From IMG/VR virus record IMGVR_UViG_3300028833_000057, positions 32,001 through 96,000 of that record: a stretch of 64,000 bases of DNA; one strand, 5' to 3'. Source of the DNA: a virus. Taxonomy: Duplodnaviria > Caudoviricetes. Below the pieces are notes generated by a model, which ran no database searches, was not told where the DNA came from, and saw only the letters and a list, made by a program, of their open reading frames with translations. Position 1 is the stretch's first letter. Each line of letters begins with the position of its first letter. The translations under genes and the position numbers were made by a program. Below, piece by piece: positions 29,829 to 63,150 of the stretch.

Positions 29829-29928
29829 AGTTTTATTCCTTTGCAATTGTTTGTAATAATTATAATTAATACATACAATCTTGCGATTGTACCAGAATTT
29901 AATATATAAATATAAGATTTAAGAAATA

Positions 29929-30073
29929 AAAAAAAAATAGTGGCAAGGAACCAGGGAGAGTTCCTTGCCACTTTGTCCTCGCCATTATAGTGTTGTGGTA
30001 AAATGTGCGTAGGACTTTTTCCAAGGAGCCATCCTTAGAAAACTTTTTAGACTTATTATAAAGTCTATCACAT
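29929..30073 (-). ncRNA. candidate structured small RNA (about 140 nt)
   Basis: Lies between a TATATTAAA promoter (about 30074-30082) and a strong terminator (29940-29971); several hairpins; no credible ORF. Confidence 0.45.
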
Positions 30074-30177
30074 TTTAATATAATATTAAAACGTATAATA
30101 TTACATTTATATGTTATTCTATAAAACTCAACTAAATATTGTAATGAAGTCTTTTCTTACTTATAAGGCACCCCCAA

Positions 30178-30369
30178 ATGAAACACTATAAATATATGCT
30201 TAATGCAGATTATTTGGTAATAGATATCGAAACGGATGAGATATCTATGGCAGATAGAGACTTTGATAATAAGCTACTATCTGATGATATGGACTATGAA
30301 ACAGAGATGTATGACATCCCAGATCCATGGTTTAGATCTTTCTTTGACAATATTTATGAGTGTACTTAG
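30178..30369 (+). CDS. small acidic hypothetical protein
   Basis: 63 aa; AACT-N6-TG upstream near 30130. Confidence 0.55.
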   Translation: MKHYKYMLNADYLVIDIETDEISMADRDFDNKLLSDDMDYETEMYDIPDPWFRSFFDNIYECT

Positions 30370-30466
30370 CGTAGATTTCCGTAAGAAGATTATATATTAA
30401 GGTTTGGATGAAATAGGATATGGTGTGGTACCATATCCTAAAACAAACATCCAAAAGGAGCCATCT

Positions 30467-31798: not shown

Positions 31799-32371
31799 TT
31801 ATCCTTTTTGTATAGTTACATAGTGTACAGTTATAAAAGTGTCTTCTTTGACAATGAATGTATATTGTAGCATCTTATCATCACTTCCGGCATCAGGATG
31901 AATAGGATTGCCATTGACAAATACCTGTAATATTTTTGTATGATCCGATGCAGTAACAATAATAGAGCATTTATTTCCACGTTTAACTTCAGGAAGGTAT
32001 CCAGGTGCAAAATATCCTTTATAATGAGAGGACATTGCATCATCAGGAACTATTACTACCTTACATTTATCCTTACATGGACAAGGTGGTTCCGGAGGAC
32101 AAGGTGGCTTTGGATGAGGACACCCATATAGTAATGCTGCAGATACAGTTGACGCATTTATAGGATCAACTTCAATACGGTTGATGCATAAATGTTTCAT
32201 ACGAGAGTACTCGATAGCCATACCAAGACCATCGGCAGTATTCCATACAAAACGACTTGGTTGAGCTTCAGCTTCAATTGCCGTAGCATTCATTGTGCTT
32301 ACATAATCTTCAAGATGTGCATCGACACCATTGGAAACCTTAGTATCATATTTTACACGAATATAAATCAT
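31799..32371 (-). CDS. putative virion protein, Pro/Cys linker plus Ig-like C-terminal domain
   Basis: GGAGG RBS before MIYIRV; CPHPKPPCPPEPPCPC linker; beta-sandwich-like C-terminus (ILQVFVNG...YTFIVKEDTFITV). Confidence 0.6.
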   Translation of the reverse strand: MIYIRVKYDTKVSNGVDAHLEDYVSTMNATAIEAEAQPSRFVWNTADGLGMAIEYSRMKHLCINRIEVDPINASTVSAALLYGCPHPKPPCPPEPPCPCKDKCKVVIVPDDAMSSHYKGYFAPGYLPEVKRGNKCSIIVTASDHTKILQVFVNGNPIHPDAGSDDKMLQYTFIVKEDTFITVHYVTIQKG

Positions 32372-32372
32372 A

Positions 32373-33743
32373 TTATCCCTCCTCAGTTTCATTGTTTATA
32401 GGTTTAACTTCTACAATTATAACTTCGGACTTCATAGGTATGAATGTATATGTAGGTATAAATGTATCAGGATCTTCCTTTGGTACTAAGACGCATTCTT
32501 TGCAAGGCGTAGGTTTATAGTAGACCTTACTTGCAATATATCCTTCATCTGGATTTACTACAAATTTAAATTCATGATATCTTTCAGTATGAGTATTGAA
32601 ACCTTCAGCAGCGGCAATAATATAATGATTGCCTTCTGTAAGAGTTATATCAACCATATCATGAGCTTTTATAGTAAACTCAACATCACCAGTAATATTC
32701 TTAAGAATTATATTTCCGGTATCTTTATTTAATTCGCATTCGCATACTTCTGGATTCTTTACAATAAGTTCCTTAACATCATAAGATGAGCCTATTGCTG
32801 CAAAAGGAATCTTATATTCAGTGTCACGATTCACTCTCTTAGGATATCTTGCTAGTACGCAATTTATAGCCGTGAAATCAAGAGCAAATTCACCAAATGA
32901 AAGACATACTTTTACAATAATATCCTTAGTAACTTTATGTATGTGATATACATTATTTTCTGGAACTAGTTCTTCATTCTCTATAAATATTTTATTTACT
33001 TCATACTGTTCAGATTCAACGCTAAAAGTAAAACTACAATCATAACCCATTCTTACATTGAACTCGTCCGGCGTTAAAGCTATTGGAGTACAGTGTTCTA
33101 ATGGATTACCTTCCATGTCAGTAAATGTAATAGAGAACTTAGTATCATAGTTCATATCATCCATAGTAGCATCTCTGTAGTCAAATAAAGAATCAAATGT
33201 ATCTTCATCTAGACTAACAAATTTTAATGCACTAGGAATAAATAATAACCAATGCTTAAATCTGCATTTAAATATATCTTCAACAGCGGGATCTAGCGAC
33301 GCTCTCTCAATAGTCATATATTCATTGGTAATATAAACATTATCACGATACTGATCCATTAAGGTTAGCATTGAATACTTAGAAGCATTAAATGCAGCGG
33401 CATCTTCTGTTGAAATATTTTTCAGCTTTAATACTACATAATCAAAAGATGGAGTAATAACGCCAACAACATGCCAAGGAGCATCTACATCTTTAAGGAC
33501 ATTATTGACTTTCTGAATGAAGTAACCAAAATAATGCCTATATAGACGTTCTTTATCATTAGCTATAGCTTTGATGGCTAAGAGTTCTTGGTCTGGATAC
33601 TTAAATTTTCCAATTTTAAATCCAGGAGCCTTAGGAATTACCGTATACGGAAATCTATCCTTAGGTTTATAACGACTTAGCCCTTCTACACCACAGCCTA
33701 AAGGATTTTCCAGCTTTACTGGTAGTATAGGGGAACGTTTCAT
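32373..33743 (-). CDS. putative virion protein with C-terminal Ig-like repeats
   Basis: 456 aa; repeated FTFSVESEQYEV / FKFVVNPDEGYIASKV and IHKVTKDI / LKNITGDV beta-sandwich motifs; late promoter. Confidence 0.6.
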   Translation of the reverse strand: MKRSPILPVKLENPLGCGVEGLSRYKPKDRFPYTVIPKAPGFKIGKFKYPDQELLAIKAIANDKERLYRHYFGYFIQKVNNVLKDVDAPWHVVGVITPSFDYVVLKLKNISTEDAAAFNASKYSMLTLMDQYRDNVYITNEYMTIERASLDPAVEDIFKCRFKHWLLFIPSALKFVSLDEDTFDSLFDYRDATMDDMNYDTKFSITFTDMEGNPLEHCTPIALTPDEFNVRMGYDCSFTFSVESEQYEVNKIFIENEELVPENNVYHIHKVTKDIIVKVCLSFGEFALDFTAINCVLARYPKRVNRDTEYKIPFAAIGSSYDVKELIVKNPEVCECELNKDTGNIILKNITGDVEFTIKAHDMVDITLTEGNHYIIAAAEGFNTHTERYHEFKFVVNPDEGYIASKVYYKPTPCKECVLVPKEDPDTFIPTYTFIPMKSEVIIVEVKPINNETEEG

Positions 33744-33764: not shown

Positions 33765-33776
33765 CAATTAAGTGTT
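33765..33776 (-). promoter_or_regulatory. late-type promoter AACA-N6-TG
   Basis: AACA CTTAAT TG on the minus strand upstream of 33743. Confidence 0.7.
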
Positions 33777-33839: not shown

Positions 33840-34274
33840 TTACTTAATAGTATGAATAAAACCATCACCAATCACAATATCATAGTCGGTGCCTTTGGTA
33901 TGCTGAAGAATATCATCGTAAATAATTTCTCTATCATTTACAAAGATAAGAATATCACCTGTACCATCATCGCAACGAATATAATTCTCTATGTAGAGAT
34001 TTGGTAAGTTTTTATCTTTCTCTAAGATCTGAATAATTCCTGTTGAATCAGGTTCAATTTCATTATATTCTTGTGGTGGAAATAATTCTGCATCACAGAC
34101 AACATAAACGTTATATACATGATTATGATCTGTAAGTTCAAACTTGTCATGCATAGGGCCAAATGCTAAAACTTTAGCTATTGCATCTTTAATATAATCC
34201 GTAAAAGGAATATTAAATCTAGAAAGAATATAGTTTACTATATCTTCGTATGTTTTGTGCTGAATGGGATTCAT
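33840..34274 (-). CDS. hypothetical protein
   Basis: 144-aa ORF, AGGT RBS, terminator at about 33812-33838. Confidence 0.7.
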   Translation of the reverse strand: MNPIQHKTYEDIVNYILSRFNIPFTDYIKDAIAKVLAFGPMHDKFELTDHNHVYNVYVVCDAELFPPQEYNEIEPDSTGIIQILEKDKNLPNLYIENYIRCDDGTGDILIFVNDREIIYDDILQHTKGTDYDIVIGDGFIHTIK

Positions 34275-34285
34275 AAGGTACCTAT

Positions 34286-34758
34286 AAAAAAATTTAGGAG
34301 GATGTGTTTACACATCCTCCTAAGTCTGCTAATACTATATATAAATATTACTTTGAAAGAGAATATTTATATAGCTACTAGTAGATCACATTCAGAGCAT
34401 GGTTGTACATCATATCATATTTCATAAGCTAGGCTTATACCTCATACAATATTTCACAACAACTCGTCTTACTAGGATACGTTTGCGAATATAAAACTCC
34501 TTGCTAGATCTCTACCGCATACCGCAGAGACCTATATCGACGCAAAATTATAGACAGCTACTCTTCACCCATGGACATCAAATACTAGCCACCGCAGCGG
34601 CACTGGATTCAAAGCCTTGATACATAAAGTATTTTAATTCGATTCCTTCCAGCACTCGATCAATGCCGGATCTACTTGAATTCTGTATAACCGCATACAT
34701 AAGTAATAAAAGTACACTTACTTCGTTACAATACAGCGCTATACTGCAACTAAGTCAA
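34286..34758 (-). ncRNA. candidate large structured ncRNA (about 470 nt)
   Basis: About 500-bp ORF-free interval between a TATATTAA promoter (34762-34770) and a 13-bp terminator stem (34294-34323); many hairpins with G-U pairs; four UGCGGU copies. Confidence 0.55.
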
Positions 34759-34779
34759 ATATTAATATAATATTGAAAT

Positions 34780-35193
34780 TTAACCGATCTTAAACATTAC
34801 AGTTCTAAAGATTTGGATTATATTTCCTAAGATCCCTTTAATAGCTTCATCAGGTATAGACTCTGCAAGTTTATTAGACTGATCTATACAAGAAATGCAA
34901 ATCTTATTCATGAAATCTGCACTCCATTCAGGAGTAAACTCAGGATTTCTTTCTCTTCTATATGGTTGTTTGCTTAGTACAACATAGCTTTCTGCAAGAG
35001 CATCTATAGGATCTATTAATCCTTTATAAACTTCTTCAGTAGCTAAATGAACATATGCTTTAGTATTCCAGTGCCATATTTGAAACTGTGTAGTGACTTC
35101 CTGCAAAGAATTAATATACACTGCTAACGGCTGTATAAATGCTGGAACAGGTGTTACCTGTTGTTGCTGCTGCATAATAGAATCATTTTCCAT
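34780..35193 (-). CDS. ferritin-like (Dps-related) protein
   Basis: FQIWHWNTKAYVHLATEEVYKGLIDPIDALAE resembles the Dps HW...H...D..AE ferroxidase pattern. Confidence 0.7.
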   Translation of the reverse strand: MENDSIMQQQQQVTPVPAFIQPLAVYINSLQEVTTQFQIWHWNTKAYVHLATEEVYKGLIDPIDALAESYVVLSKQPYRRERNPEFTPEWSADFMNKICISCIDQSNKLAESIPDEAIKGILGNIIQIFRTVMFKIG

Positions 35194-56077: not shown

Positions 56078-56141
56078 ATCATTATTTAATATATGCTGTG
56101 GTACATAGAAAATACGAAAAAATAAAAGCCCCGAAGGGCTT
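56078..56141 (-). repeat. terminator+promoter cassette junction
   Basis: About 45 bp nearly identical (one mismatch) to 56478-56522, followed by the GCCCCGAAGGGC hairpin. Confidence 0.8.
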
Positions 56142-62561: not shown

Positions 62562-62664
62562 ATGTTTCCTCTAGGGTTAAAGAATTCAAATCTTAATATA
62601 AATCTTCCTAAGAAAAATCTTCGAAAAAAAAAAGAAAAGGCCTACTTGAAAGTAAGCCTTGTTA

Positions 62665-62865
62665 TTAGTATTGCTTTTTCTTTTCTGCAAGTTTAGCGTT
62701 CAGTTCTTCAATAGTCTTCTCAAGGTAGTCGAAATATGCATCTGCATGTGACTTCAAATAATACTGTTGCCCTTCGGCTTTATTGCCGAAATCGTCTTCA
62801 CATTTTCCAGTAATATCGACATAGATTCCAGTTTCTTCCGGTCTTTTGACTTGTTCGTTGCTCAT
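62665..62865 (-). CDS. small hypothetical protein
   Basis: AAGGAG RBS before MSNEQ. Confidence 0.7.
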   Translation of the reverse strand: MSNEQVKRPEETGIYVDITGKCEDDFGNKAEGQQYYLKSHADAYFDYLEKTIEELNAKLAEKKKQY

Positions 62866-62945
62866 TGTAACTCCTTTTTGAGCTGTACATATTATAATAT
62901 ACAAATAAAAAAAATAAAGGCCTACCCGAAGATAGACCTATTTAT

Positions 62946-63131
62946 TTAGCGACGTCTTGGTCTGATATAATCAAGAATATCTCTTATTACTGCCTTTTTC
63001 TTATCATCTAAAGACATAAGACTGTTAGTGATGTACTTCGTAGCTTTTATAATATCACCAAAGTTATATTTAGAAATTGGTTTACTAAGAAATTCTTCTT
63101 CCGTAGAAGTTTCTTTGTTACGTGTATACAT
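62946..63131 (-). CDS. small hypothetical protein
   Basis: 61 aa; GAGGT RBS. Confidence 0.65.
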   Translation of the reverse strand: MYTRNKETSTEEEFLSKPISKYNFGDIIKATKYITNSLMSLDDKKKAVIRDILDYIRPRRR

Positions 63132-63150
63132 AGTTTACCTCTAAAAGTTT

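Follow-up and report, generated by a model that had tools for sequence, protein, structure and literature searches.

The window, a stretch of 64,000 nucleotides, corresponds to bases 32001-96000 of a 267,826-bp IMG/VR virus record, 33% G+C. The source phage is a rumen-type jumbo phage of 268 kb. Between two minus-strand genes (34780-35193 and 33840-34274) lies an ORF-free gap of 505 bp (34275-34779), which contains no credible ORF. Judged by its sequence, the gap is a genuine non-coding RNA gene of the minus strand, with a length of about 471 nt. It has boundaries defined by sequence signals, is conserved, has secondary structure at the RNA level, and has no coding potential. The features of the locus and its neighbours are listed in Table 1.

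An earlier note on this DNA described the gap as the longest ORF-free one in the window. The gap itself stands, but it is not the longest, as two others exceed it when ORFs of at least 80 aa are considered (62562-63150, 589 bp; 29847-30396, 550 bp). The minus-strand promoter and the 13-bp terminator that the note placed at its ends are both present.

Table 1. Features of the RNA locus and the neighbouring genes, in window positions
Feature	Position	Strand	Remarks
RNA gene	34286..34756	-	~471 nt, from predicted start to U-run
Early-class promoter core TATATTAA	34762..34769	-	Predicted start G at 34756 (TATATTAA-N5-G)
P1, 14-bp 5' hairpin	34720..34755	-	Starts at +2; invariant loop GCGC; 5 pairs change on both sides; 98% of cells paired
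P2 hairpin (GUGUAC/GUAUGC)	34693..34717	-	3/6 pairs change on both sides; 100% paired
Multibranch core closed by long-range P3	34549..34690	-	UAUACAG (34689-34683) with CUGUCUAUA (34557-34549); 6/7 P3 pairs change on both sides
P4 (AUUC/GAAU) and P5	34637..34681	-	P4 covaries from U-A to C-G; 7/9 P5 pairs changed on both sides
P6 (ACU/AGU) and P7 (UCAAGGC.../...GUCCAUGG)	34560..34630	-	P6 2/3 and P7 5/9 pairs changed on both sides
P8 (UUGC/GCAA), enclosing GUCGAU, and P9	34501..34545	-	P8 with one-sided changes only
Hypervariable 3' domain, lineage-specific hairpins	34341..34500	-	160-195 nt in relatives
Invariant 16-nt block AUAUAGUAUUAGCAGA	34325..34340	-	Identical in all rows of four lineages; directly before the terminator
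Intrinsic terminator	34286..34323	-	13-bp stem 34323-34294, then A and U7 (34292-34286); from pattern scan
DUF5856 gene (Dps/ferritin-like), upstream	34780..35193	-	Pfam PF19174, E 6.7e-11
Late promoter AACTTTGAATTG of the DUF5856 gene	35222-35211	-	Late motif
144-aa gene, downstream	33840..34274	-	Starts 12 nt after the U-run
Late promoter AACACTTAATTG of the 456-aa gene	33765..33776	-	After a second terminator (33837-33812); same arrangement in relatives
456-aa gene	32373-33743	-	Late promoter

The RNA contains no conserved ORF, and every sense frame has 8-18 stops. Its longest ORFs comprise at most 41 aa, differ in place and frame, and are without ribosome-binding sites. With Rfam 15, cmscan gives no match at the gathering score for the window and five relatives. 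At E <= 10 it gives only chance-level rows, the best of which has 23 bits against the 48.6 needed. No Rfam 15 match was obtained for tmRNA, RNase P RNA, group I and II introns, 6S RNA, T-box, or riboswitch leaders. For GOLLD (RF01998) and ROOL (RF03087) the covariance models give no match even at E 10, and ROOL has no row on 34150-34900 at E <= 10. ARAGORN finds neither tRNA nor tmRNA in the 64-kb window. The absence of model matches rules out ROOL, GOLLD, tmRNA, RNase P, an intron, or a known leader as its identity, and the earlier description of the RNA as unclassified agrees with the Rfam comparison, in which no family matched.

VIPR vrRNAs consist of tandem repeats of alternating GGY/NN motifs beside the gene of a Vipr (RAMP) protein (bioRxiv 10.64898/2026.04.26.720920). 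This identity was also rejected: the RNA has no 5-nt GGY/NN periodicity, and the two GGU of its conserved loop are 7 nt apart. The neighbouring proteins show no Pfam or PHROG match to RAMP. By these comparisons the RNA is a new family of a known general kind, the large ornate phage RNAs of unknown function.

Relatives and transcription context

The phage GenBank set contains no relatives of the phage, and four protein queries and two DNA patterns identified none in IMG/VR. Metagenomic relatives were found by protein searches with both flanking genes and the conserved downstream 197-aa gene. Their gene order is DUF5856, a gap of ~505-550 nt, a 144-146-aa gene, a 449-456-aa gene, and a 189-197-aa gene, with the exception of contigs L026 and L030. 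A DNA pattern scan of JGI metagenomes gave 13 matches, four of which are true; these are two known contigs and the new sequences L015 and L021, which belong to known lineages, and the rest are GC-rich chance matches. The four clear lineages comprise the window, L006/L007, L008/L009/L010/L015/L027, and L011/L012/L021. The gap of ~505-550 nt between the DUF5856 gene and the 144-aa and 456-aa genes is kept in all of them, and the RNA identity between them is 54-70%. The terminator has a predicted energy of -21 to -24 kcal/mol in every lineage, and its stem shows compensatory changes across lineages (GGAGG/CCUCC, GGCCGG/CCGGCC, and GGGCGG/CCGCCC).

L026 and L030 represent a probable fifth lineage with a homologue of the RNA. 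They have the same promoter, ~407 nt to the U-run, and a terminator, located between orthologous DUF5856 and 527-aa genes. The 144-aa gene is lacking, yet the promoter, the RNA-sized gap, and the terminator are retained. Mapping by eye places P1, P2, P4, and P5, but not P3 and P7. The homology is graded as probable and not as proven because the covariance model gives just 3.9 bits (E 0.13). At L026:2275-2382, and at the equivalent position of L030, a second hairpin (AAAGGAGAG..CUCCUUU) comes after the RNA terminator, with a late promoter behind it. The layout would fit either a loss of just the 144-aa coding part from between two terminators or its never having been inserted there.

The RNA gene is present as a single copy in the genome, according to sequence and covariance-model searches. 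The gap is absent from more distant DUF5856 loci, and a 235-kb relative gives no covariance-model match. Among GTDB species genomes, 74 pattern matches were obtained and none was confirmed by the covariance model, which also rejected all pattern matches in IMG/VR. Because none of these sources gave a confirmed copy, the RNA family is regarded as rare and clade-specific.

All five lineages have the promoter core TATATTAA in the same location. With N4-(T/A)G behind it, the core has 81 copies in the genome, of which 49 (60%) precede a same-strand ORF by 10-90 nt, compared with 8.8% of random positions. The genes behind this early motif include those of an SbcC-like protein, an RNA polymerase subunit, a DNA polymerase, and a Dda-like helicase. 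A second motif, AAC-N4-WATTG, has 28 genome copies, 21 of which (75%) are just upstream of an ORF, by 20-35 nt; examples in the window are at 35222-35211 and 33776-33765 (minus) and at 903 and 44980 (plus). It precedes the genes of a tail fibre, four virion structural proteins, and a protease-like protein.

In phage AR9, AAATATATATTAT-(6N)-G+1 is the promoter of the injected virion polymerase and AACA-(6N)-TA/G that of the non-virion polymerase (PMC5312081). By resemblance to this system, the RNA would carry an early promoter of the virion-polymerase type, with G 34756 as the predicted start. At the sequence level, the genome displays the marks of AR9/phiKZ-type early units: conserved start spacing, early-function genes downstream, and split polymerase pieces. 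The phage-encoded polymerase is split into one beta-like and two beta'-like pieces. The beta-like gene and one beta'-like gene (genome 136057-137976 and 5679-7058, minus) carry the early motif, which fits non-virion polymerase genes, as expected. The other beta'-like piece is located at 148.9 kb. Many early promoters are directly followed by a short hairpin, GTAACAAT..GTTAC, as at window positions 56093, 56493, 60337, and 61008 (minus) and at genome positions 130965 and 208880. Early transcripts would thus commonly begin with a 5' stem-loop, like P1 of the RNA.

The early promoter of the RNA is flanked by neighbours with late promoters, the DUF5856 and 456-aa genes, and this arrangement is kept in every lineage. 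No terminator is found between the DUF5856 gene and the RNA, so late DUF5856 transcripts should run through the RNA to its terminator. The interval from the terminator to the ATG of the 144-aa gene has no early or late motif in any lineage. As this gene has no promoter motif of its own, it presumably depends on terminator read-through for its expression.

The 144-aa protein has no Pfam, PHROG, or fold match. It was considered as an RNA-binding partner and set aside, with an AlphaFold model of pLDDT 73, no PDB fold match, and an empty atlas search. Conservation is strong in the downstream late genes: identity is 63-83% for the 197-aa gene (31799-32392, minus) and, even in the distant lineage, 48% for the 456-aa gene; their proteins have no Pfam or PHROG family match. 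The 197-aa protein has an invariant Cys/Pro-rich linker, CPHPKPPCPP.

Secondary structure and conserved elements

The 5' 260 nt of the RNA are folded by RNAalifold into nine helices, P1-P9, and the 262-position model of this domain has four branch points. In the alignment, invariant blocks alternate with stems that change in a compensating fashion. The covariation set consists of seven distinct sequences from the four clear lineages, in which 97.2% of the cells are standard pairs. Both sides have changed in 34 of 67 pairs, compared with 13.6 +/- 2.4 in 500 shuffles, none of which reached 34, and with 1-8 when the partners were slid by 1-3 columns. With one sequence per lineage, 33 of 67 pairs changed on both sides, whereas 1000 shuffles gave 12.9 +/- 2.6 (maximum 21) and slides gave 1-7. 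The earlier note's proposal of a large structured phage RNA on the minus strand with its own promoter and terminator gains strong support from synteny and from compensatory changes in relatives. Three of the hairpins that it listed, CAGUAUA/UGUAUUG, UCCGGCAU/GUGCUGGA, and GGUCUCU/AGAGAUC, lie within covariation-supported helices.

The use of G-U pairs in the minus-strand hairpins is likewise borne out, as these account for 12 of 62 standard pairs in the copy of the window. For the 5' domain the predicted folding energy is -75.4 kcal/mol (z -2.9) on the minus strand versus -42.0 kcal/mol (z -0.24) on the plus strand. The G-U pairs on the minus strand and this asymmetry point to the minus-strand RNA as the object of selection. 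With its terminator the RNA has a folding z-score of -4.8, and without it one of -2.2; random 432-nt windows of the genome give -2.3 +/- 1.6. This score was dropped as evidence, as the controls show no discrimination in this genome.

P4 encloses an invariant 7x7 internal loop, with AAGUAGA (34677-34671) opposite AGGAAUC (34647-34641). Its AGUA opposite GAA, flanked by A-U, may form a bulged-G, sarcin-ricin-like motif. Hairpin P5 (34670-34648), also enclosed by P4, has the loop GAUCG. P6 and P7 share the conserved internal loop GAUGUA / GUGAAG, in which UGUA opposite GAA could be a looser version of the same motif. The apical hairpin of P7 (34588-34601) is lineage-specific and not alignable. 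In hairpin P9 (34534-34505), 5 of 11 pairs have changed on both sides, and its 8-nt loop GGUAUGCG (34523-34516) is identical in the four lineages and closed by C-G. Two tertiary contacts are possible. The P5 loop AUCG may pair with GUCGAU, which remains compatible in L006, where CGAU is replaced by CGGU. Instead of forming P8, UUUUGC may pair with GCAGA in the 3' block. Covariation is silent on both candidates because the partners are invariant.

Two other pairings of the earlier note do not belong to the conserved structure. The 8-bp long-range pair 34380-87/34669-76 exists in the window sequence only, is absent from relatives, and clashes with the conserved AGUA loop and P5; about two such 8-mer pairs are expected by chance in 485 nt. 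The other one, the long AU stem near the 3' end, falls within the hypervariable domain.

Between lineages the hypervariable domain is 18-45% identical, whereas identity is 60-70% in the 5' domain and, at the nucleotide level, 55-84% in the flanking genes. Its hairpins are kept by compensatory changes within sub-lineages. The insert matches nothing else in the genome and nothing in phages or plasmids, and a role as an antisense or guide module was rejected on this ground. The 16-mer AUAUAGUAUUAGCAGA is unpaired in the folds of the 3' module and is thus predicted to be single-stranded.

Possible roles of the RNA

We infer transcription itself, its timing, an action in trans, and the kind of partner from the sequence. 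The preferred reading, with a probability of roughly 0.55, is that the gap encodes an independently transcribed non-coding RNA of a new family, made early, with a trans-acting role as a folded scaffold. Synthesis by the injected virion RNA polymerase would begin at the G six bases after TATATTAA. The transcript would fold during synthesis and end at the strong intrinsic terminator, giving a stable RNA of ~470 nt with its 5' end locked in a helix. The functional core would be the conserved 260-nt 5' domain, which comprises two hairpins, the P3-closed multibranch domain, the sarcin-ricin-like AGUA/GAA loop, and the GGUAUGCG hairpin. It would be followed by a freely evolving insert of 160-195 nt, the invariant single-stranded 16-mer, and the terminator.

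Such an RNA would act in trans from early infection onward and would probably be expressed continuously. It may bind a protein or self-assemble through its invariant loops and junctions. Late in infection, the DUF5856 mRNA would also carry the RNA sequence as a tail, and leak-through at the terminator would supply the message of the 144-aa gene. Some findings count against this explanation. The 144-aa gene lies directly after the terminator in four lineages, which also fits a role in cis, the z-score without the terminator is ordinary for this genome, and the covariation comes from four clear lineages only.

The position of the 144-aa gene is the starting point of the strongest rival, a cis-acting leader whose 5' domain binds a ligand, a protein, or a tRNA, toggles the terminator, and so controls this gene. 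In four lineages the gene lacks an early or late promoter of its own and begins directly behind the terminator, to which the invariant 16-mer is adjacent, and UUUUGC (34547-34542) could pair either with the GCAA after P9 or with the GCAGA of the 16-mer as a possible switch. However, a covarying anti-terminator was not found, and no Rfam cis-regulatory family matched. Unlike in known riboswitch and T-box leaders, the conserved domain is separated from the terminator by a hypervariable insert of 160-195 nt. L026 and L030 keep the unit without the 144-aa gene, which argues against the RNA being retained solely for the sake of that gene. A leader is held to be unlikely.

A bolder reading follows the analogy with the RNA-only cages of ROOL and GOLLD. 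The core would be self-assembling, or catalytic or protein-capturing, and the insert would be a fast-evolving specificity or cargo module for host takeover or for conflict with defence systems and rival elements. This proposal is speculative, and its odds are rather low. If it were true, a novel ornate RNA class of jumbo phages would be made by an injected polymerase in the first minutes of infection.

A base-pairing regulator is a slimmer prospect. Here the 16-mer would be a seed for pairing with phage or host mRNAs, and the 5' domain would serve stability or chaperone recruitment. The order of seed, hairpin, and U-run resembles that of trans-acting small RNAs, the seed is the same in four lineages, and perfect complements of 13-14 nt occur in two plus-strand genes (genome 158356-158371 and 161500-161515). 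Against this, RNA-genome matches of at least 13 nt occur at seven places along the 470 nt, so that two within 16 nt are only weakly unusual. No target at a translation start beats shuffled seeds, the best having -14.1 kcal/mol, which 3 of 40 shuffles equal. A conserved ornate domain of 260 nt also far exceeds the needs of a seed carrier. The two genes with complements (genome 157465-158466 and 161248-162384) encode proteins of 333 and 378 aa with no assigned function and are ~92-95 kb away, outside the window; the proteins are not paralogous at those sites. Given the high background of such matches in this AT-rich genome, both complements probably arose by chance. The complementarity of UAUGCGGU and GUAUUAGC to the stretch GCUAAUACCGCAUA of 16S rRNA was dropped from consideration, as such 8-mers are expected by chance.

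The earlier note had suggested a multivalent sponge that titrates a protein by means of four UGCGGU motifs on hairpin tips. The four copies are exact, as ACCGCA at 34514, 34521, 34591, and 34690, and their number is in excess, with 4 in 485 nt versus ~0.05 expected. The window as a whole has 18 copies of ACCGCA/UGCGGU, of which 4 are within the RNA locus, and GUAUGCGGU has two exact copies in it. The placement of each copy at a hairpin apex does not hold, as only the tandem pair (34514 and 34521) is at a conserved apex, where it forms the single 8-nt P9 loop, the sole form in which UGCGGU is conserved across lineages. The copy at 34690 (34690-95) lies in and just after the 3' strand of P2 and is UGUGG, base-paired in P2, in relatives. 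The copy at 34591 is carried by the non-conserved apical hairpin of P7. The remaining copies are thus lineage-specific or base-paired, and because a single UGCGGU site is conserved, the four-site sponge fails and is highly improbable.

Least probable of all is that the locus is a DNA-level element, such as a replication origin or a packaging site, or the remnant of a protein gene. Its length and lack of coding, in a jumbo phage with no assigned replication origin, would suit this reading, but compensatory changes keep G-U pairs on one strand only, the folding asymmetry between strands is strong, iterons are absent, the GC-skew switch is near 27-29 kb and not at the locus, all frames have stops, indels are not multiples of three, and no ORF is conserved.

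Comparison with known RNAs

To our knowledge, bacteria and phages have few large RNAs of elaborate fold, and those described (ROOL, GOLLD, and OLE) have yielded surprising structures but no settled function. The present RNA family is a well-delimited addition to them: its transcription unit is clear, its secondary structure has covariation support, and its building blocks are recognisable. Its temporal class, defined from the promoter, would be early, in phages that bring their own RNA polymerase. This raises the testable question of why a jumbo phage would need a folded RNA of 470 nt in the first minutes of infection.

AR9 early units: The TATATTAA-N5-G of the RNA resembles the AR9 early promoter AAATATATATTAT-(6N)-G+1, and both phages have split beta/beta' subunits (PMC5312081). 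The AAC-N4-WATTG of the flanking genes is likewise similar to the late AACA-(6N)-TA/G of AR9 (PMC5312081). In contrast, the described early units of AR9 encode proteins, while the unit here would give a structured RNA of 470 nt with a spacing to +1 that is one base shorter.

phi29 pRNA: The pRNA is made from an early promoter. It is a phage-encoded, structured packaging RNA that stands alone and functions as an assembled scaffold, traits that the present RNA would share. Neither a complementary pair of loops nor a packaging context is found in the present RNA, and it has no sequence or model similarity to pRNA. The pRNA differs in having ~174 nt and a defined loop-loop ring code.

ROOL and GOLLD: These are large ornate RNAs of phages and prophages, of which ROOL was first obtained from cow rumen (PMC5737381), and their structures have been studied by cryo-EM (PMC12286853). 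The present RNA differs from them in that it is not beside tRNA genes and is so far confined to one small jumbo phage clade. It is also shorter, with ~470 nt compared with 581 nt in ROOL and more than 800 nt in GOLLD, and its pseudoknots are conjectural only. Like both, it is phage-borne, hundreds of nucleotides long, and multibranched, with a structure supported by covariation. It shares with ROOL an internal stretch of little conservation and a rumen-type setting. With GOLLD it shares the division into one conserved and one poorly conserved half, but the conserved half is the 5' one here and the 3' one in GOLLD.
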